From assembly GCA_027487835.1 (NCBI GenBank), contig JAIYCU010000025.1, positions 21,890 to 85,889 of the forward strand: 64,000 nt of DNA, given 5' to 3'. The stretch comes from Bacteroidota bacterium (lineage in GTDB: Bacteria > Bacteroidota > Bacteroidia > UKL13-3). The notes under the pieces were generated by a model, which did no database searches, was not told the origin of the DNA, and saw nothing but the letters and a program-made list of their open reading frames with translations. Of the stretch, positions 49,731 through 57,418 are shown in pieces (the stretch's first letter is position 1; each line of letters starts with the position of its first letter). Made by a program: the position numbers and the translations under genes.

Positions 49731-52703
49731 ATGAAACCGCTAAGCCTATCCCTATTTTTGCTTTTACTTCAAATTGGCCTTAGTGCTCAAAATCCTATTA
49801 GCTATCCCAACCAAGGAACCTTATTGGCAGCATCAACAAACCAGCAGCATCATTATTTTTTATTTAGGTCTTCGCAGTCTTCTATTGTAGTAATTGATGA
49901 AAACACCAAGAAGGATTCGGTTATTCTTTTAGATAAATCATGGATAAGCGAGGCAGTTGCCTTGCCAACAGGATTTTTGTTTTATGCTGACGATGATGTG
50001 CTTCAAAAAAATGAATTATGGTATTTTGATTTTAAAGATGGACTTATTAATACAGGGCTGGTTCATGGAGGCTCTAGCCTTATTAGGCCATTTTTTAGAA
50101 ACAACCAGTTGATTATTCTTGCCTTTGATAAAACTTGGAATGTGTATCAATTTGATGCAAAGCAAAAGCAAGCTATATGGCAATTCAGCACCTCGCAAAT
50201 CATTCAAGATGTTTTTGTGATTAGCAATATCCCAGTGGTTCAGATTAGCATTGCAAACCAAAGTAAGTTTGAATATTGGTTGTGTCAACAAGATTCCTCT
50301 AAAAAAATATTTGAAGGTAAGTTTCCTGCATCCTTTCAACAGCCTTCCTTATTTGCAGTTGATTCCGATGCAGCTTATATTTCGCTACCTCGTAAAACCA
50401 ATGCAGAGGTATTTACTACTGTTTATAAATTACATATTAACGGAGCCGATTCTTTTGGACGAACCAGCATAAGGACACAGCGTTCTTTATGGGATGTAAA
50501 TAAGTTTAGGGAACCTTATCCTATCGCCAACAATGGTATTGTAAGATTTGTGCCTGAAGCCTATTCTAATGATAGTTTACCCTTGGTTCAACTACAAATT
50601 AGCAACTTAACTTGGCGCAGTATTTTGCCTAAAAGTGCCACAGCGTTTAAAGGAAATAGGCCTTGGGATTTAGACGAATTAGGCAATAACAGGTGGATGA
50701 TTAAAAGCAAAGTATGCGGTATTGAGTTAGCCGTACTTAAAGAAGACACTATGTTTGAGGTGGCAGATTATTGGAAAGGTCCTTCGGATGGGATTCAGCT
50801 TTATTTTGGTGCCTTCATGGGTTCGGCTTTTTACGGCGATTCTTTGTTTTTTTTAAGCAGCAATGGCAAAGATGGCAAATGGTATTTAAGCTATCAAAAA
50901 GGGGATGAGCAAAAAATTCATCAGCTGATGCCTATCCCTTCTGATTATAGTCTTGATAGAAGAAGGATTAATTTTTTATATCCTACCCCAAATGGATGTT
51001 TTGTAAGTTATGAGCTAACCGGCAACACTCCAGCAGCCTTGGTTTACTATGCTTTTTTAGCCTCGCCTTTGGTTCAAACCGAGCAAAACAATGCCAAGGA
51101 GGGCGAATGGATGAGGCAATTTTCGGAGGTTTCTGTTAGCAACAATTCATCAAATAGGGTATTGGTAAGTTGTTTATTGGTGAACCAAAATAGTGAGTCT
51201 TACATTAGCTTGGAGAAAGGAGTTTACGACCCAATGATGGATGCAGATACCAAAGAACCTTTGCAAGGCTTAGGCTCTCAGCACATCATCAAGTTAGATA
51301 AAAATGGCAATAGACTTTGGGATTTTACCTATGGTTTCCCAGCAAGGTCTGGCAATACAAGAATGGGGCTTCAACCCAATGGAGATGTGGTGATAGCTGG
51401 TTGCGCATGGCATTATGCTGTCATTGGCAATGACTCTAATGACAATAATAATGTTAACTACCTCTTAGCCTTAGATGCTAATACAGGGCAACCTAAATGG
51501 TCTGAATGGTTTATGCCCAAGCCTAAAAACTCCGCCCCCGAAGAAATAGAAGCCTTAACCTGCGACAATAAAGGGAATATTTATATGGTTGTAAAGGTTA
51601 CAGGGACACAGTTTTCTTATGATAATATCAACCTAGTTTTGAGCAAACCAGATGCCCATGTGCTGATTAAGTTAAATGAATTTGGATCCTCTATTTGGGC
51701 CCACGAAATTAAACAAGATTGGGTAGGCGTTTGGACAGGCACTGTGGTGAAGATTTTAGTGGATGAAACCCAAGAGCAGGTTATTACCTTAAATACCCAG
51801 TCGGCTTACTACAATACAGGTAGTACATGCGATTATACAGATTGGTATGTTACTTATTCGGCAGTGGATGCTAAGAGCGGAAAGCTTAGATGGAAAAGAG
51901 AACTCACCTTTTCTGATTTAGGTGGCATGCTCACCCTCGAAAAATCAGCTAATAATTTTATTCTTAGCACAGGGTATTTTAGAGGTTTTTCAGAAATAGA
52001 CCAAGATAAAGTAGAAACTCCAAGAGACGAAGATTGTCATCAAACGCGTGCATTTAGGCTGGTGTTAAATCCTTTAAATGGAGAGGTGCTTTATAAAACC
52101 TTGTTTTCTTTCCCCAATTATTTGCCAGTTAGAACTGCCACAGACAAAGAGGTGGTTTGGGAAGTAGGCTTAAATAAAGTAACTAGTTCCGACAGAAATT
52201 ATCACGTTTCTCTGCTTGCCAATGATTTGCATGGTAGGCCTTTTGAACCCTTAAAGATTGAAAAAGCTACGGGTCCTGGCGACTTTGGATATAACGGTCG
52301 TATAGCCATTCAAGATGGGTATGTTTGGATAAGCGACCTTACCTCTAAACAGTTTGGTCCATTTTATAGCAACATCACGCAAGCCAATTCGGTAAGCATT
52401 GTAAGGCTTAAATTGCCAGAGGTGGCCTCCCTCTCCAATAATTACAATGCAGAAGCACTGGAAGAAAAACTATTCTTAGGGCCTAATCCTTTTACCCATC
52501 AATTGCAGTTAAGTTATCCAGAAAAAGGGTACTACAGAAACTTTGAAGTATATGATTTATCAGGGAAATTAATCTTAGAACAGCCTTTGTTGGCGGATGT
52601 AGACATTGAAAAAATAGACATGAGCGCCTTACCAAAGGGATTGTTTATCTTTAAGTTTATTGGGAAAGATAGGGTGCTGGTTAAAAAATTGATCAAGGAG
52701 TAA
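49731..52703 (+). CDS. Secreted protein of unknown function (probable beta-propellers) with T9SS type A CTD
   Basis: Start moved to ATG 49731 (MKPLSLSLFLLLLQIGLSAQ); IIKLDKNGNRLW/LIKLNEFGSSIW repeats; LGPNPFT...YDLSGKL...KGLFIFK...KKLIKE tail. Confidence 0.8.
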   Translation: MKPLSLSLFLLLLQIGLSAQNPISYPNQGTLLAASTNQQHHYFLFRSSQSSIVVIDENTKKDSVILLDKSWISEAVALPTGFLFYADDDVLQKNELWYFDFKDGLINTGLVHGGSSLIRPFFRNNQLIILAFDKTWNVYQFDAKQKQAIWQFSTSQIIQDVFVISNIPVVQISIANQSKFEYWLCQQDSSKKIFEGKFPASFQQPSLFAVDSDAAYISLPRKTNAEVFTTVYKLHINGADSFGRTSIRTQRSLWDVNKFREPYPIANNGIVRFVPEAYSNDSLPLVQLQISNLTWRSILPKSATAFKGNRPWDLDELGNNRWMIKSKVCGIELAVLKEDTMFEVADYWKGPSDGIQLYFGAFMGSAFYGDSLFFLSSNGKDGKWYLSYQKGDEQKIHQLMPIPSDYSLDRRRINFLYPTPNGCFVSYELTGNTPAALVYYAFLASPLVQTEQNNAKEGEWMRQFSEVSVSNNSSNRVLVSCLLVNQNSESYISLEKGVYDPMMDADTKEPLQGLGSQHIIKLDKNGNRLWDFTYGFPARSGNTRMGLQPNGDVVIAGCAWHYAVIGNDSNDNNNVNYLLALDANTGQPKWSEWFMPKPKNSAPEEIEALTCDNKGNIYMVVKVTGTQFSYDNINLVLSKPDAHVLIKLNEFGSSIWAHEIKQDWVGVWTGTVVKILVDETQEQVITLNTQSAYYNTGSTCDYTDWYVTYSAVDAKSGKLRWKRELTFSDLGGMLTLEKSANNFILSTGYFRGFSEIDQDKVETPRDEDCHQTRAFRLVLNPLNGEVLYKTLFSFPNYLPVRTATDKEVVWEVGLNKVTSSDRNYHVSLLANDLHGRPFEPLKIEKATGPGDFGYNGRIAIQDGYVWISDLTSKQFGPFYSNITQANSVSIVRLKLPEVASLSNNYNAEALEEKLFLGPNPFTHQLQLSYPEKGYYRNFEVYDLSGKLILEQPLLADVDIEKIDMSALPKGLFIFKFIGKDRVLVKKLIKE
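51069..51082 (+). repeat. Dispersed motif copy TTGGTTCAAACCGA
   Basis: In an interdomain linker, read as LVQTE. Confidence 0.85.
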
Positions 52704-52752
52704 TTGAGTCACTTCCATTAAGATTCAAAGCCCTTAATGCCTCCGAACATGT

Positions 52753-52768
52753 GTTATGCGAGGATTAA
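52753..52768 (-). repeat. Inverse core (R''-like) end of the toxin-antitoxin cassette; the rest of this attC appears truncated
   Basis: The + strand GTTATGCGAGGATTAA matches the cassette start GTTAGGCGAGAATTAA (minus strand, 53394->53379) at 14/16 positions. Confidence 0.6.
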
Positions 52769-52780
52769 GATATTCAGAAA

Positions 52781-53077
52781 TTAATAAGGTTTTATTTGGT
52801 CATTTCGATTTGCATCCCAAATGGATAATACTATTATTTCATAAGGGTTGAAGTCATAAAATATTAAATAGTCTCGAACAATTTTCACTCTAGTACTTCC
52901 TTCATCAGTTTTCCTTCCAGACTCAGGATATTGGGAGGCTATTTTTATGGCTTCTTTTATCATTTTGTTTAATCGAAGACTATAAGTCTTTGATGAATTT
53001 CTTTCTATCCAATATGATAGAATTTCTAAACGGTCATGATTTGCAGACTTTGTCCAAACTATTTTTCGCCGAGCCAT
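52781..53077 (-). CDS. Type II toxin, RelE/ParE family
   Basis: IVWTKSANHDRLEILSYW...YPESGRKT...RDYLIFY...IVLSIWD, a typical ParE-like pattern, 98 aa. Confidence 0.88.
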   Translation of the reverse strand: MARRKIVWTKSANHDRLEILSYWIERNSSKTYSLRLNKMIKEAIKIASQYPESGRKTDEGSTRVKIVRDYLIFYDFNPYEIIVLSIWDANRNDQIKPY

Positions 53078-53295
53078 TTATCTATTTCTCCATCCGCTGC
53101 TTTCTCATCTAAAATTTCTGAATTCAAATACTCTAATTTAGCCTTTCTGATATGAGACTTCTGTTTGTCGTTCAATTCAAATACTTTTTCTTCCAACTCA
53201 AAATCTAATAGCATTTTTATTTCCTCAATAATACCTGCATCATTGATATCATTGATTTTACTTATTAATTCTGCTTTTAATTCTAGTGCTTTCAT
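53059..53295 (-). CDS. Putative antitoxin (acidic, 78 aa)
   Basis: Small acidic ORF directly upstream of, and overlapping by 19 nt, the RelE/ParE toxin. Confidence 0.75.
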   Translation of the reverse strand: MKALELKAELISKINDINDAGIIEEIKMLLDFELEEKVFELNDKQKSHIRKAKLEYLNSEILDEKAADGEIDKWLGEK

Positions 53296-53311
53296 TGCTT
53301 TCTTATTAATC

Positions 53312-53319
53312 CAAATTTA
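53312..53319 (-). promoter_or_regulatory. -7 element TAAATTTG, the TA module's own promoter
   Basis: TAnnTTTG 16 nt upstream of the antitoxin ATG, inside the cassette. Confidence 0.55.
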
Positions 53320-53387
53320 AAGTATTTTCAGAACTATATAAAAATTATTTATGGAGTTTCAACCTTAAGTAAATTCATTTAATTCTC

Positions 53388-53528
53388 GCCTAACGTTTTT
53401 GGGCTTGGCGAAGGTGGGGTTTAGAAAGTACCAAAGTTCAAATTTAGCACAAAAGCTAATAGAAAGTAGAAATGTCCAGCCTAGTACTAAAGCCCCACTT
53501 TTGCCAAGCCCGTGTTAGCAGCAGCAAT
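53388..53528 (-). mobile_element. attC-like recombination site (integron cassette junction)
   Basis: In gene direction: TGCTAAC (inverse core, 53520->53514) ... GTTAGGC (core GTTRRRY, 53394->53388). Arms GGGCTTGGCGAAGGTGGGGTTTAG (53401-53424) and CTAAAGCCCCACTTTTGCCAAGCCC (53487-53511) pair with two G-T wobbles on the bottom strand and one bulged G (53492). Confidence 0.75.
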
Positions 53529-54401
53529 TCTTTCAGCATCCAACACTTGTATGTCCTCCTATTGGTTTTACTACTTCTCCATTGTTCGCAGGTCTTGACA
53601 AATAAATTGTCGGACTTGTTGCGTTGTAATGTCGTGAAGTATCAATTATTAAATCTAAAATTCCGTCCCCGTCAATGTCGCCTGCAAATATTAGGTTTAT
53701 CATTTGGTCGTCAAAATTTGGTTGGGCAACAAGAAGGCTTGTGTGCTGTTGTCCTTTGATTGTCGCTGTTAAATAAAGTTTGTAATTCCAAACGTCAAAC
53801 CACTCTGGGTCGTCTTCCACTTTCTTTTTACCTCCTGTCGCATATATTTTGTAGTCAATACCTAAATAGTTAATTCGCAAAGTGTCGCCAGGAAAGATTT
53901 GTTCTTTTGATAGAATGGCTTGTTGAACATTATGAGGTGTCAAAAATTTTGAAGCCTCAATTAAAATAATTGAAGTGTCTTTGTTTATGGTTTGAACTTC
54001 CCAACCAGTATTTTCATTTTCATTCTCGTCCACAATTTGGTCATTAACTCTTTTTGTTTTCAGTTTAGTTTCTGCAAGGTAAAAACCTGTCTTGCCTTGA
54101 AAAAGTCCGAACCATTTTTCTTTATCTGCATTTTCCCAAACTTCATCACCGTGAAATGTTCCTACTGTCAATACTTTGATTGAGAAAGTGCTGTCAATAG
54201 GAAAAGAAGAATAGTCGTAGGTGATGGTGTCGTTGTCTGAAGTGTTAGTAACTGCAACGGCATTTGTCAAAGTGTCAACAGTTGAAGTTTTATTTGCAGG
54301 ATTATTCTGTTGGCTTGAATTGTTACAAGCTGTCAGTCCCAAAACTGCAAAGGTCAATGCTAATATTTTCTGTTTAACTGTCGTCATATTGTTGCTGCTA
54401 A
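53394..54401 (-). mobile_element. Integron-like gene cassette (~1.0 kb) carrying one lipoprotein gene
   Basis: Begins G|TTAGCAGCAACAAT-ATG (54402->54385) and ends in the attC whose inverse core reads GTTAGCAGCAGCAAT on + (53514-53528), a 14/15 match. Confidence 0.72.
53533..54387 (-). CDS. Hypothetical lipoprotein (cassette-borne)
   Basis: Lipobox LGLTAC; S/T/N-rich linker; DxDxDG-type motif GDIDGDGILD; ends SVGC. Confidence 0.85.
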   Translation of the reverse strand: MTTVKQKILALTFAVLGLTACNNSSQQNNPANKTSTVDTLTNAVAVTNTSDNDTITYDYSSFPIDSTFSIKVLTVGTFHGDEVWENADKEKWFGLFQGKTGFYLAETKLKTKRVNDQIVDENENENTGWEVQTINKDTSIILIEASKFLTPHNVQQAILSKEQIFPGDTLRINYLGIDYKIYATGGKKKVEDDPEWFDVWNYKLYLTATIKGQQHTSLLVAQPNFDDQMINLIFAGDIDGDGILDLIIDTSRHYNATSPTIYLSRPANNGEVVKPIGGHTSVGC

Positions 54402-54525
54402 CTCATTTATACCCGCATAAAACACTCCCATAGCAAGCCAAATTGGTTCGCTTTGCGCTTAAATTATGCGGATTATTTTTTTTGAGATTAGAAAGGTTTC
54501 TAATTTTCATAAGTTATTGGTTGAG

Positions 54526-54556
54526 CAAAATTATTCGTTTTTGGGTAAAATTACAA
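54526..54556 (-). promoter_or_regulatory. Candidate cassette-driving promoter (TTG-N20-TAATTTTG)
   Basis: Minus-strand TTG at 54556-54554 and TAATTTTG at 54533-54526, pointing into the promoterless cassette. Confidence 0.45.
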
Positions 54557-54585
54557 GCATTTGCAGTACCTCTCCCGGCTAAACT

Positions 54586-54613
54586 ATGGACCATCGTCTA
54601 TCGACCATGGACA
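54586..54613 (+). repeat. Degenerate heptamer tandem repeat, 4 units
   Basis: ATGGACC ATCGTCT ATCGACC ATGGACA. Confidence 0.55.
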
Positions 54614-54701
54614 TATCTTCAAGGACTAAGTTCAAACTATTTACAACAATACCCACACAAAACGTTAATAAAATGCCGCGCAATTGTAACAAACAAGTGC
54701 C

Positions 54702-54709
54702 TATTTTTG
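54702..54709 (+). promoter_or_regulatory. -7 element TATTTTTG upstream of the exonuclease gene
   Basis: TAnnTTTG 7 nt before the TTG start. Confidence 0.5.
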
Positions 54710-54716
54710 AAGCAAT

Positions 54717-56108
54717 TTGTACGCCATAGTCGACATAGAAACCACCGGAGGGCAACCCAATCAGAATAGAATTACTGAACTTTCTATCTATGTGCATGAT
54801 GGCACCCAAGTGATTGAACACTTTGAAACTTTGGTTAATCCAGAGATTCCAATTCCACCCTATATTCAGGCCTTTACAGGTATTACCAATGATATGGTGG
54901 CAAGCGCTCCCACTTTTGCAGCCATTGCCGAAAAAATTTATGAGATTCTTCAAGGTAATATTTTCATTGCCCACAATGTAAATTTCGACCATAGTTTTAT
55001 CAAAAATCAATTGTCGGAAGCTGGGTTCGACCTAAACGTAAAAAAACTTTGCACGGTTAGACTAAGCAGAAAAATTGTTCCGGGCCATCGCTCTTATAGT
55101 CTTGGAAATATATGCGCTGCCCTAGGGATTCGTTTGCACAACAGGCACCGCGCAGGTGGAGATGCCTTAGCTACGGTTAAGTTATTTGAGCATTTGTTGG
55201 CCAATGATACGGAACATCATATTGAAGATTCTTTAAAACGAGGGTCGAAAGAGCAACAACTGCCTGCAAATGTGAGCAAGGCTGATTTTGAAAAATTACC
55301 CAAAATGCCAGGTGTTTATTACTTTGTGAATGAAAATGGATTGGCCATTTATGTAGGTAAAGCCAAAAACATTAAAAGCAGGGTGTCAAGCCATTTTAGC
55401 GGGAATTTAAAGTCGAAGCAAAAGCAAAACTTCATGCGCGATATTCATGGCTTTAGTTTTACTGCTACAGGCAATGAACTATTAGCCATCTTGCTTGAGA
55501 GCCATGAAATTAGAAGACTTTGGCCCAATGAAAATCGCGCTCAAAAAAGAATTAGTCAGGTATATGGGCTCTATGATTATATCGATCAAAACAATAAGAT
55601 AAGATTTGGCGTAGATAAAGTAAGAAAGGAGTTAAAACCCTTGCTCACGTTTGGTTCACATGCTGCGGCTTTACAATACCTCAATCAAATGATTGATGCC
55701 TATGGATTATGTCCAAAACTTTGTAATAGCCAAACCAATCCAGGCACTTGTATCTCTGTTAAAAATGAAATTTGTGATGGTTATTGTTTAGTCCAAGAAA
55801 ATGTTGCTGCCTATAATGCAAAGGCACAGGCCTTTTTTAATCAGTTAACTTTAGAAAAGAAAACTTACTATATTGTAAGCAAAGGTCGCAATTATAAAGA
55901 GCAATCAGTTGTGATATATGAGCCCGGTAATTTTGTAGGGTATACCTTTGTCTCTATTCGTGAGCAAATAGATTTTGACCATGTAAAAGATAGCTGTGAA
56001 GCCTTAAAAATAAACAGCCTAATGGAATCTGTCTTGAGTCAGATAGTAAGTGGCGAGAAAAGTAAAGGATACAAGGTCTACACGCAAATGCGCATGGCTA
56101 TGGATTAA
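54717..56108 (+). CDS. DEDDh 3'-5' exonuclease (DNA pol III epsilon-like) fused to a GIY-YIG (UvrC-like) nuclease
   Basis: TTG start; IVDIETTG, AHNVNFD, HRAGGDA; PGVYYF...IYVGKAKNIKSRVSSHF. Confidence 0.92.
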   Translation: MYAIVDIETTGGQPNQNRITELSIYVHDGTQVIEHFETLVNPEIPIPPYIQAFTGITNDMVASAPTFAAIAEKIYEILQGNIFIAHNVNFDHSFIKNQLSEAGFDLNVKKLCTVRLSRKIVPGHRSYSLGNICAALGIRLHNRHRAGGDALATVKLFEHLLANDTEHHIEDSLKRGSKEQQLPANVSKADFEKLPKMPGVYYFVNENGLAIYVGKAKNIKSRVSSHFSGNLKSKQKQNFMRDIHGFSFTATGNELLAILLESHEIRRLWPNENRAQKRISQVYGLYDYIDQNNKIRFGVDKVRKELKPLLTFGSHAAALQYLNQMIDAYGLCPKLCNSQTNPGTCISVKNEICDGYCLVQENVAAYNAKAQAFFNQLTLEKKTYYIVSKGRNYKEQSVVIYEPGNFVGYTFVSIREQIDFDHVKDSCEALKINSLMESVLSQIVSGEKSKGYKVYTQMRMAMD

Positions 56109-57418
56109 ACTTTGTTTGGTTCAAACAGAAAATTCTTACATTCCATTATCATTTCTTCATCAATTTTTCCAAGCTCTGCGGTGGAAATTTCGTTTACCAA
56201 ACCTGGATCATACGCTGTTTTTACCTTTATGTAATTACTTGTAAAACCATACATGGTATTGCCATCGCTTTCAGCTTCCCATAAAACTGGGTAAGATTTG
56301 CCAATATGTTCTTCATAAAAGGCCCTGCGTTTTTTATCAGATAAAATATGAAGCATTTTACTTCTATCAGCACGCACCTGCATAGGCACTTTACCTGGCA
56401 ATTTGAAGGCGGTTGTATTTTCTCTTTCGCTGTAGGTAAACACATGCAAATAAGAAATTGGGAGTTCGTTTAGGTATTGGTAAGTCTCTAAAAACAACTC
56501 CTCTGTTTCTCCTGGAAATCCCACAATTACATCAACTCCAATGCAACAATGTGGCATGAGTTTCTTAATTTTTTCTACCCTTGAAGTATATAAAGCAGTA
56601 AGGTATTTCCTGCGCATACTTTTTAACAAGGTATCTGAGCCCGATTGCAATGGAATATGAAAATGAGGCACAATTTTTTTGGATTGCGCCACCCAATCAA
56701 TTATTTCATCACTTAATAAATTAGGTTCAATGCTGCTAATGCGTATGCGTTCTAAACCTTCAATTTGGTCTAAGGCTTGTAAAAGTTGGTAAAAGTTTTG
56801 GTTCGACCCAATGCCAAATTCACCGGTATTTACGCCTGTTAATACAATTTCTTTGGTGCCTTGGGCTACAATTTCATGGGCTTGCTTTACCACATTTTCA
56901 ATGGTATCACTTCTGCTTTTACCTCTTGCCAAAGGAATGGTACAAAAAGAACAGAAATAATCGCAACCATCTTGCACTTTAAGAAAGGTTCGGGTTCTAT
57001 CGCCAATAGAGTAGGAGGCATGATACTCCAATACTTCTTTGATTTTTCCGTCTTTTACTTCTGCTATTTCTTTTTTCTGGCCTGACCCAATATGCTGATG
57101 TAAATTAAATTTTTCTGCAGCACCTAACACCAAATCTACCCCTTCAATCTGGGCAATTTCTTGCGGTTTAAGTTGCGCATAGCAGCCAATTATCGTGATA
57201 AAAGCATTTGGGTTATGCCTGAGTGCTTCTTTTACGATGCGTTTGCATTTCTTATCGGCATTGTCTGTAACAGAGCAAGTATTAATAACATATACATCTG
57301 CACCTTCATGAAATTGCACTTTGGCGTAACCTTCGGCCAGTAACGACCTGCCAATGGTGGAAGTTTCGGAGAAGTTAAGTTTACAACCTAAGGTATAGAA
57401 AGCAACTGATTTAGACAT
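56105..57418 (-). CDS. mtaB: tRNA t6A37 methylthiotransferase MtaB
   Basis: TLGCKLNFSE, INTCSVT, radical SAM CDYFCSFC, TRAM tail. Start moved to MSKSVAF at 57418. Confidence 0.92.
   Translation of the reverse strand: MSKSVAFYTLGCKLNFSETSTIGRSLLAEGYAKVQFHEGADVYVINTCSVTDNADKKCKRIVKEALRHNPNAFITIIGCYAQLKPQEIAQIEGVDLVLGAAEKFNLHQHIGSGQKKEIAEVKDGKIKEVLEYHASYSIGDRTRTFLKVQDGCDYFCSFCTIPLARGKSRSDTIENVVKQAHEIVAQGTKEIVLTGVNTGEFGIGSNQNFYQLLQALDQIEGLERIRISSIEPNLLSDEIIDWVAQSKKIVPHFHIPLQSGSDTLLKSMRRKYLTALYTSRVEKIKKLMPHCCIGVDVIVGFPGETEELFLETYQYLNELPISYLHVFTYSERENTTAFKLPGKVPMQVRADRSKMLHILSDKKRRAFYEEHIGKSYPVLWEAESDGNTMYGFTSNYIKVKTAYDPGLVNEISTAELGKIDEEMIMECKNFLFEPNKV

Follow-up and report, generated by a model that had tools for sequence, protein, structure and literature searches.

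A putative attC-type hairpin with its cassette in a Bacteroidota genome and a related family of cassette arrays linked to Xer-like recombinase genes

The window, i.e., the whole 64-kb stretch of DNA that was analyzed, has a G+C content of 37% and codes for T9SS sorting domains and CHU_C domains, which assigns it to the Bacteroidota; its strain is present in freshwater metagenomes, among them SRR16126833, -834, -855 and -877. Between a gene for a T9SS-secreted protein on one side and an exonuclease gene on the other, a hairpin of the + strand lies between a lipoprotein gene and a toxin-antitoxin module. The genes either side of the hairpin are all located on the − strand, and the stop codon of the 284-aa lipoprotein gene is 13 nt away from it. 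The hairpin is the longest inverted repeat of the window, and no second copy was found within the 64 kb by HMM and covariance-model searches. The following features were assigned, each with the evidence for it in brackets:

52751–52760, + strand: GTGTTATGCG, the 3' core box left over from the attC that belonged to the toxin-antitoxin cassette (comparison with contigs of metagenome runs)
52781–53393, − strand: module of ParE toxin (52781–53077) and antitoxin (53059–53295) (Pfam ParE_toxin, E = 8e-9)
53388–53520, + strand: putative attC-like recombination hairpin (folding of both strands, covariance model, family alignment A1)
53388–53395, + strand: 5' core box GCCTAACG, corresponding to R' of the bottom strand (AACG 96–99% conserved, n = 84 copies)
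53396–53399, + strand: one-sided unpaired TTTT bulge on the 5' arm (unpaired nucleotides counted per arm in 84 copies)
53401–53419, + strand: 5' arm of the main stem, pairing with 53493–53511, with G·T at 53410 and 53413 (covariation, RNAalifold)
53420–53492, + strand: apical segment with weak distal pairs (53420–53424 with 53487–53491), unpaired G53492 and a 62-nt loop (family alignment, motif spacing)
53493–53511, + strand: 3' arm of the main stem (inverted-repeat search, covariation, RNAalifold)
53513–53528, + strand: 3' core box TGTTAGCA with extension GCAGCAAT, the R'' box on the bottom strand (TGTT in 84/84 copies; complements the leader 54388–54402)
53533–54387, − strand: cassette gene for a 284-aa predicted lipoprotein (ORF, signal ...LGLTAC, weak FG-GAP and DUF4971 matches)
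54388–54402, + strand: cassette leader and upstream boundary, ATTGTTGCTGCTAA↓C, the arrow here and below marking an inferred crossover point (homology to other contigs ends at 54402)

On the + strand, positions 53388–53528 read GCCTAAC-GTTTTT-GGGCTTGGCGAAGGTGGGG-TTTAG ... CTAAA-G-CCCCACTTTTGCCAAGCCC-GT-GTTAGC. A preliminary description of this DNA had proposed an attC-like hairpin, in which an arm at 53401–53424 pairs with an arm at 53487–53511 through two G·T wobbles, with one unpaired G on the 3' arm (53492), an apical segment of about 62 nt, and spacers of 6 nt versus 2 nt between the AAC/GTT pair and the stem. Each of these elements was found in the sequence, the wobbles being 53410·53502 and 53413·53499, the apical segment 53425–53486 (62 nt) and the spacers 53395–53400 and 53512–53513. 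A third G·T wobble, 53395·53513, adjoins the AAC/GTT pair. Since G53395·T53513 and T53400·G53512 can pair, the effective spacer asymmetry is 4 nt versus 0, and the TTTT bulge occupies the place of the canonical two-sided central spacer. When both strands were folded as ssDNA, as the preliminary description had suggested, the + strand was the more stable one with −24.5 kcal/mol (z = −3.7; none of 200 shuffles was as good), compared with −19.9 kcal/mol (z = −2.05) for the − strand. With a covariance model derived from relatives, the window hairpin scored 145 bits when the + strand was searched and 35 bits for the − strand. With respect to the cassette genes, the better-folding + strand is the bottom strand.

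Relatives were searched for by scanning one genome per species with the arm pattern, an approach biased towards one arm sequence. The scan yielded at least 120 genome stretches. Among the matches listed, the full element of about 130 nt occurred in at least 90 stretches (nhmmer, E down to 1e-44). At least 180 non-overlapping copies, of which at least 104 are full length, fall into length classes of 90–96, 124–137 and 193–195 nt. Thirty of the 120 listed pattern matches, mostly from other phyla, lacked the element and were discarded as chance matches. The loci examined were stretches of 8–20 kb, mostly from MAGs, and the hosts among the matches listed belong to more than 20 genera of Bacteroidota and comprise Chitinophagaceae, Ferruginibacter, Flavobacterium, Saprospiraceae, Cytophagales, Spirosomataceae, Pedobacter, Arcicella, Kaistella and others. 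Cultured carriers are Ferruginibacter yonginensis CECT 8289, Arcicella lustrica DC25W, Pedobacter segetis SD-b and Flavobacterium xinjiangense CGMCC 1.2749. Among the genomes that bear arrays are CP058707.1, CP051546.1, OZ252000.1 and a 5.26-Mb contig of ERZ25068833, from which locus L210 comes. The element was also seen on a few contigs binned to other phyla, where mis-binning is possible.

A stricter cut retained 156 copies in 85 stretches among the matches listed. On this basis, 40 of the 85 stretches carried two or more copies, and all 71 adjacent pairs were co-oriented, with none in opposite orientation. Copies were spaced by a median of 1286 bp (range 419–4900 bp, among the matches listed), with one to few ORFs between them. 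These ORFs are nearly always on the strand opposite to the orientation of the window's + strand and end a few to about 40 nt before each copy. Several arrays contained toxin-antitoxin pairs. The layout is that of integron cassette arrays, so that the + strand of the window counts as the 'bottom' strand; co-oriented arrays in which each site follows the 3' end of a cassette ORF, one of several features by which membership of the attC class was judged, were confirmed.

The conservation of sequence and structure was determined in alignment A1, which comprises 84 non-redundant copies. TGTT is invariant, AAC is present in 81–82 and GTT in 84 of 84 copies, and the base following GTT is R in 83 of 84; the outer box positions are looser (NNNYAAC / GTTRNNN). 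Thus, the terminal core boxes expected of an attC site, RYYYAAC / GTTRRRY, are present. The stem is formed by alignment columns 17–36 with 115–134 and is uninterrupted over 19–20 bp. The arms vary in a compensatory manner (GGGCTTGGCGAAGGTGGGG/CCCCACTTTTGCCAAACCC, GCAGCTACCCGAAGGTGGCG/CGCCACTTTTGGGTAGGTGC and GGGTATTGCCGAAGGCGGGG/CCCCGCTTTTGGCAATACC), and 83.4% of the cells are paired on the named structure. Changes on both sides were observed at 24 of 30 pairs overall and at 22 of 24 stem pairs. The covariation among homologues asked for in the preliminary description proved to be strong in the stem: 0.285 compared with 0.103 ± 0.006 in shuffled alignments, none of 500 of which reached the observed value. 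Sliding the partners by 1–3 columns lowered it to 0.04–0.08, i.e., 4–7-fold. Independently, RNAalifold recovered the same stem, with compensatory changes at 18 of 18 of its pairs. The distal pairs form in only 30–60% of the copies. A structurally conserved, ssDNA-foldable inverted repeat, which is likewise required of an attC site, is therefore given.

The stems are biased between strands. G·T occurs at columns 11/137 in 83, at 26/125 in 67 and at 30/122 in 80 of the 84 copies, in the last case never replaced by G-C, and C·A occurs at columns 20/131, i.e., at stem position 4, in 60 of 84. In total, the stems contain 254 G·T as compared with 63 A·C. In 69 of 84 copies the + strand folded more stably than the − strand; the mean difference was −2.6 kcal/mol (Wilcoxon p = 8e-12). 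The strand asymmetry, from which folding of a single strand had been proposed for the window hairpin, thus extends to the family, albeit on comparative evidence only. Since the cassette genes are on the other strand, their sense RNA carries the mismatches, which speaks against a function as a terminator or in mRNA and favours folding of the bottom strand as DNA. From this it is inferred that the folded bottom strand may be the recombination substrate.

In a canonical attC site, the R and L boxes are separated by a central spacer that is unpaired on both arms, and there are 2–3 extrahelical bases on the bottom strand and a variable terminal structure (PMC11641012). The family departs from this geometry. 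On the 5' arm, 4 nt are unpaired in 60 and 5 nt in 22 of the 84 copies; on the 3' arm, the numbers are 0 nt in 58 and 1 nt in 23. R and L boxes with a two-sided spacer, as tested for membership of the attC class, were hence not found, and a canonical L box is not definable. Insertion columns inside the stem are empty in 81–83 of 84 copies, and the 2–3 conserved extrahelical bases, which were also tested for, are absent. In particular, G53492 (column 114) is situated in the variable top of the stem and is not conserved, so that the extrahelical G cannot stand as a feature of the family. Of the bulge and spacer lengths whose conservation had been questioned, the one-sided bulge of 4–5 nt is kept and the bulged G is not. 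The loop is built differently as well. A motif of the type AGYACnAAnGTTCA recurs at a spacing of 18–19 nt in 103 of about 165 intervals; the window loop holds about 3.5 such units (AGYACnAAnGyyCA...), and the three length classes correspond to about 1–2, 3–4 and 6 units. Tandem Repeats Finder detected no tandem repeat in the loop, and the periodicity is visible as motif spacing only.

Taken with the AAC...GTT boxes, the membership in a family of cassette arrays and the cassette boundaries at the AAC box, the original assignment as an attC-like site was borne out. With the integron attC sites of class 1 integrons and the Vibrio VCRs, which IntI recombines as folded bottom strands, the family has in common an imperfect palindrome of 60–150 nt located 3' of promoterless cassette genes, terminal ...YAAC / GTTR... 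boxes paired in the hairpin, a crossover at AA↓C (G↓TT), first cassette bases that complement the cassette's own far box, co-oriented arrays that include toxin-antitoxin cassettes, and a bottom strand that folds better than the top strand. It differs from them by the bulge of 4–5 nt on one arm with 0–1 nt on the other, by an uninterrupted stem of 19–20 bp without conserved extrahelical bases, by fixed G·T at two stem positions and C·A at stem position 4, by a loop of 18–19-nt repeat units that is strongly conserved across families, and by an associated recombinase without the IntI-specific domain.

Cassette mobility is shown by cassettes that occur in more than one context. Two arrays of one genome (L076 and L072, CP058707.1) have a 1.4-kb block in common with 99.5% identity, which extends from the AACG of one attC to the ...TAACG of the next. 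Between two different MAGs (L115 and L053), a cassette is common at 88% identity with the same AACG boundaries; the neighbouring attCs differ, each being internally compensated. The window's cassette gene was present with 96–99% identity in metagenome runs X5, X7, X8 and X9 and in loci L216 and L217. In X5, X7, X8, X9 and L216, homology to the window cassette ends at 54402; in L217 it continues for 9 nt, to 54411, into a similar AT-rich stretch. Past this boundary, X9 and L216 continue into another attC, X5 and X7 into a different arm, and L217 and the window into non-attC DNA. Judged by these comparisons, the cassettes move as units. The same comparisons place the crossover within AACG of the + strand, i.e., at G↓TT of the coding strand, which is the crossover point of integrons; the resolution is 4 nt, and the bottom-strand AAC crossover, as a further test of attC membership, holds at that resolution.

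In the window, the crossover is inferred to lie between A53393 and C53394 of the hairpin and, upstream, at 54401↓54402. The whole predicted cassette is 53394–54401, comprising the hairpin, the 284-aa lipoprotein gene and a 14-nt leader. On the + strand, GTTAGCAGCAGCAAT (53514–53528) and ATTGTTGCTGCTAAC (54388–54402) are complementary at 14 of 15 positions. Such complementarity between leader and far box is classically expected of a cassette that took its first bases from its own R' box. A circularised cassette would restore a perfect 9-bp R box, GCTGCTAAC/GTTAGCAGC; the present hybrid box pairs CTAAC/GTTAG only. The expected junction of the circular cassette would be GCTGCTAA↓CGTTTTTGGG, and the expected empty site in the DNA of the window would be GGGTATAAATGAG↓TTAGGCGAGAAT. 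No contig bridges both flanks across the cassette, and the empty site was not observed. Relatives of the lipoprotein cassette were found via its 90%-identity cluster; no homologues of the window's three cassette proteins were present in 200 fetched loci.

Public assemblies of the window's strain break at 53420 and 53478. In metagenomes, contigs covering 53388–53531 are 5–10 times deeper than the flanks, and contigs whose own flanks are unrelated are joined there at 53391/2 and 53517–19. The toxin-antitoxin module lies between two attC arms in contigs of runs X5 and X6, and its depth in these runs differs from that of the lipoprotein cassette. In the window, only the 3' core box remains of its own attC; at the place of the rest, neither the HMM nor the covariance model gave a match. 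With one intact attC and one remnant, the window holds a two-cassette mini-array. The toxin-antitoxin cassette is broken at the other core box, which does not fit a crossover at one box only. The mini-array is stranded: it is joined to a non-attC site, no integrase is present within 64 kb, as no tyrosine recombinase was found anywhere in the window, and an HMM of the putative attI described below had no match at the window's upstream junction. In this respect it resembles CALIN/SALIN elements, as classed by IntegronFinder, and secondary-site insertions, with one intact attC plus a remnant, no integrase nearby and the cassette joined to non-attC DNA at G↓TT (bioRxiv 10.1101/2022.09.11.507474), from which it differs in belonging to the Bacteroidota repeat family.

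Candidate recombinases were found next to related arrays. Among the matches listed, IntI1-like ORFs were present in six loci that had been found through the attC alone. Two of these six and one metagenome locus (L106, L022 and L201) were dropped as array integrases, as they adjoin IS91-family Y2 transposases. At L057, L077, L067 and L043, likewise found through the attC alone, a relative lies upstream of the array and co-directional with it. The best family matches of these four proteins were to XerA_Arch (197–201 bits, below the 220-bit cutoff) and to the integron integrase model TIGR02249 (177–184 bits, below the 265-bit cutoff). The TIGR02249 match falls into two stretches and skips profile positions 181–238, the region of the IntI-specific insertion, and in comparison with VchIntIA (2A3V), 24 residues stand where IntI4 has 59. 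The C-terminal SPLD tail is common to the array recombinases and IntI. Nearly all of 79 metagenome relatives have a catalytic-motif spacing of 91–92 aa. The IntI-specific additional domain around patch III, by which an integron integrase would be recognized, is thus missing, and the divergent recombinase that had been suspected was found insofar as tyrosine recombinases without this insertion stand beside the arrays, their activity being inferred only.

At the metagenome loci, arrays were detected with an HMM and covariance model R1. They lie downstream of seven relatives (L130, L131, L135, L137, L148, L152 and L178) and upstream of, and divergent from, three others (L150, L156 and L176). More than 100 proteins of 385 aa, at 55–92% identity, make up a close clade, whose members the sources name 'site-specific integrase' or 'XerD', never 'integron integrase'. 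In all three close relatives with enough flanking DNA (L210, L211/L212 and L215), the gene is followed by 4–11 co-directional small-ORF cassettes, each ending in an attC of a 170–210-nt variant; one of these arrays includes a beta-lactamase-family gene. In another platform, a nucleotidyltransferase/HepT toxin-antitoxin pair comes first. Among the more distant relatives with long flanks, about half have no array. Many relatives at 35–43% identity are instead part of IS91-type elements, and most of the array-negative loci are accounted for in this way. In six platforms, TGCGTAYTTTTAAGTG↓TTAGC is conserved 150–200 nt after the integrase stop codon and immediately ahead of the first cassette. Since an attI is expected at this place, the sequence is regarded as a putative attI, its function being inferred.

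The AlphaFold model of the 385-aa protein (pLDDT 84) shows no extra helix in the catalytic domain and a well-predicted N-terminal beta/alpha domain of about 85 aa. In a Foldseek search, XerA and IntI4 ranked first, and the full length of the protein aligned to full-length lambda integrase. The catalytic and core-binding domains are most similar to those of XerA (archaeal XerA, 137 bits; Foldseek E = 6e-15) and of IntI4, and the simple spacing between the catalytic motifs is as in XerA and XerC/XerD. Unlike Xer proteins, the 385-aa protein is encoded at the head of cassette arrays, has the additional N-terminal domain of about 85 aa and an IntI-like C-terminal SPLD tail, and is associated with long hairpins instead of 28-bp dif sites. 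Integrons with an 'inverted integrase', e.g., in Treponema, were reportedly described by Boucher et al. in 2007; their integrase gene is said to be co-directional with the array, as here, and their integrases reportedly carry the IntI additional domain, which the 385-aa clade lacks.

Considering these results together, the hairpin is probably the attC-type site of a mobile cassette (53394–54401) of an integron-like Bacteroidota family, which the 385-aa Xer-like enzyme would most likely serve. In the proposed mechanism, the + (bottom) strand would fold into the hairpin, and the paired AACG/TGTT base together with the first turns of the 20-bp stem would provide two recombinase-binding boxes. A tyrosine recombinase, most likely the Xer-like integrase of 385 aa encoded directly upstream of, and co-directional with, the arrays, would cleave AA↓C, and cassettes would be excised as circles. 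These may be re-inserted at the platform site TGCGTAYTTTTAAGTG↓TTAGC just downstream of the recombinase gene, or at secondary sites that contain GTT. Strand and orientation may be chosen through the TTTT bulge on one arm and through the G·T and C·A positions that are conserved. An enzyme without the IntI insertion that reads extrahelical bases is in keeping with sites that have no conserved extrahelical bases. Speculatively, the loop repeats may be arm-type sites that are recognized by the N-terminal domain. That the recombinase is active, which strand it uses and where it cleaves are inferences, and no experiment supports them as yet.

The only serious rival explanation is that the arrays are ordinary CALINs on which a canonical IntI, encoded at another place in the genome, acts in trans, the Xer-like neighbour being a bystander or part of another mobile element. 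Core boxes, crossover point and array organisation are indeed those of integrons, and CALINs far from any intI are common (PMC4889954). A canonical IntI elsewhere cannot be excluded, because only 8–20 kb were read per genome. Nevertheless, every tyrosine recombinase found adjoining an array lacks the IntI insertion, none being canonical; the partner gene is fixed in position and orientation and is followed by the GTT-containing site and then by the first cassette; the sites have no extrahelical bases for the extra domain of IntI to read; and IntegronFinder surveys found Bacteroidetes to be essentially without integrons (PMC9024848). This explanation is thus considered unlikely. Much less is to be said for recombination of duplex DNA at dif-like core sites, as in the Xer-dependent pdif modules of Acinetobacter plasmids, with the hairpin being incidental. 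The Xer-like nature of the linked enzyme and the 6-bp palindrome AACGTT at the crossover would suit this very improbable reading, but selection acts on the complementarity of arms 90 nt apart and not on their sequence (22 of 24 stem pairs), it is strand-biased, and there is no second inverted binding element flanking AACG in the duplex, because the upstream flank varies between cassettes.

The remaining two explanations dispense with cassette recombination. A palindromic repeat of the REP/ERIC or MITE type, spread by transposition or retained for a role in mRNA stability, would account for a multi-copy, intergenic, imperfect palindrome of about 130 nt after gene ends and for the metagenome read depth of 5–10 times that of the flanks; ERIC and REP palindromes are of similar size and position. 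Dispersal in either orientation, by which such repeats would be recognized, was however not found: the family is clustered in arrays, strictly co-oriented (71:0, among the matches listed), bounded by core boxes and exchanged with the adjacent gene. Units of gene plus repeat recur in different contexts and break inside AACG, the far box is complementary to the cassette leader, the window has a single copy in 64 kb, and the G·T bias is towards the antisense strand of the genes, such that sense mRNA would fold worse. There is accordingly very little chance that the element is only such a repeat. Even less credible is a transcription terminator or other RNA element of the lipoprotein gene upstream of the hairpin, despite the strong stem that starts 13 nt after its stop codon. 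No T-run follows the stem on either strand, a terminator scan was empty there, the loop measures 62–70 nt, and an Rfam scan of 50000–57000 (E ≤ 1) returned nothing at the hairpin; Rfam contains no attC family. In the sense transcript, A·C mismatches replace the conserved wobbles, and both the AAC/GTT boxes and the cassette exchange would be left unexplained. The preliminary description would have been refuted by an element behaving only as a terminator or REP without association to variable genes; this did not apply, since copies travel with the adjacent genes.

By definition, an integron has an IntI with its extra domain and attC hairpins with extrahelical bases that this domain reads. The system described here works like an integron, yet fails on the IntI domain, the extrahelical bases and the two-sided spacer. 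Full-text literature searches returned no description of these arrays or of the recombinase, and the integron-like system of freshwater and soil Bacteroidota is apparently undescribed. In Bacteroidetes, IntegronFinder surveys had reported lone integrases only and later one complete integron (PMC9024848), and a preprint of 2024 names Bacteroidota among the clades earlier found without integrons (bioRxiv 10.1101/2024.07.02.601686). If the system works as inferred, a major phylum of bacteria from freshwater, soil and wastewater would have its own machinery for cassette capture, current tools may file its arrays as nothing or as orphan arrays, and single-strand recombination of hairpins would be possible without the need for the IntI domain. 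The latter, if true, bears on the origin of integrons from Xer-like recombinases.

A wider reading is offered tentatively, with slightly more doubt than conviction. The arrays may represent a second widespread integron lineage in Bacteroidota, with a Xer-like integrase that lacks the IntI domain and has an N-terminal arm-binding-like domain, with attCs that lack extrahelical bases and mark strand and polarity by a bulge on one arm and by G·T/C·A at fixed positions, and with loops of 1–6 units of 18–19 nt that are perhaps arm-type sites. Swapped apical modules and near-identical attCs could then expose how attCs are attached or homogenised. Both were observed: attCs are near-identical across bacterial families, and the same cassette was seen with two different apical attC modules. 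The uniformity of the attCs, together with one gene carrying swapped apical modules, would offer a handle on how cassettes acquire their attC sites, provided that the system works as inferred.

The lipoprotein cassette that carries the attC-like hairpin, 96-98% identical between copies, was found with two differing apical attC modules:
window 53420-53492, apical module of the hairpin in the stretch studied
L216:1690-1830, attC of a cassette copy on another fetched stretch
L217:942-1081, attC of a further cassette copy

In one module the apex is GGGG/CCCC and the loop is the 'consensus' one; in the other the apex is GGCG/CGCC and the loop differs. Both arms agree exactly over their basal 17 bp. 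This pattern suggests that attC sites swap loops or undergo gene conversion with one another. The hairpin's loop (window 53425-53489; columns 43-110 of A1, the alignment of 84 family copies) consists of tandem 18-19-nt units of the form AGYACnAAnGTTCA. The number of loop units follows the length class of the element: about 1-2 units in the class of about 93 nt, about 3-4 in that of about 131 nt and about 6 in that of about 194 nt. These units were not reported by Tandem Repeats Finder.

Among the matches listed, 130-nt attC copies about 95% or more identical were present in genomes assigned to different Bacteroidota families (L070, L037, L105, L010, L020, L048, L125 and others). Judged from sequence alone, this near-identity across families suggests either that cassettes were exchanged recently or that attC sites are added or homogenised by a templated process. 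A few of the listed contigs with the same element came from bins with other assignments (L021, L047, L052, L056/L120/L126, L064 and L116; bins Proteobacteria, Limnohabitans, Bosea, Phycisphaerales, Acidobacteriota or Chlorobium), which may reflect mis-binning or real spread beyond Bacteroidota. In L021 the ORFs and the element share one orientation, which sets this contig apart from all the other matches listed.

Of the neighboring toxin-antitoxin cassette's own attC, only GTGTTATGCG (window 52751-52760), 21 nt past the ParE stop codon, remains. When it is compared with intact copies of this cassette from other metagenomes, homology is lost within TGTT, the core box at which crossover is not expected. 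Upstream of the lipoprotein cassette, another short multi-copy repeat with the motif GGTCCATAG lies intergenically at window 54581-54615. There, several contigs with differing flanks meet, and contig depth is up to 115 versus 0-20 alongside.

Between the stop codon of the linked integrase gene and the putative attI (TGCGTAYTTTTAAGTG|TTAGC), a conserved hairpin (GCGTTTTTTGGGTAGATG ... CATCTACCCCAAAAAACGC) was observed:
L130:10862-10960, pre-attI hairpin
L210:11159-11250, pre-attI hairpin
L215:11159-11250, pre-attI hairpin
L077:7138-7000, - strand, pre-attI hairpin

In one 5.2-Mb genome (L211:7069-11158), primase-like, MobC/NikA-like and relaxase genes come directly before the integrase and cassette platform, which therefore seems to be carried by a mobilisable element.

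IS91-family elements, comprising a tyrosine recombinase and a Zn_Tnp_IS91/Y2_Tnp transposase, start with GAAC(T/C)AAACC directly after the attC TGTT at four places among the matches listed:
L022:6463, IS91-family start
L102:1059, IS91-family start
L106:1627, IS91-family start
L106:7347, IS91-family start

This looks like an insertion sequence targeting these recombination sites.
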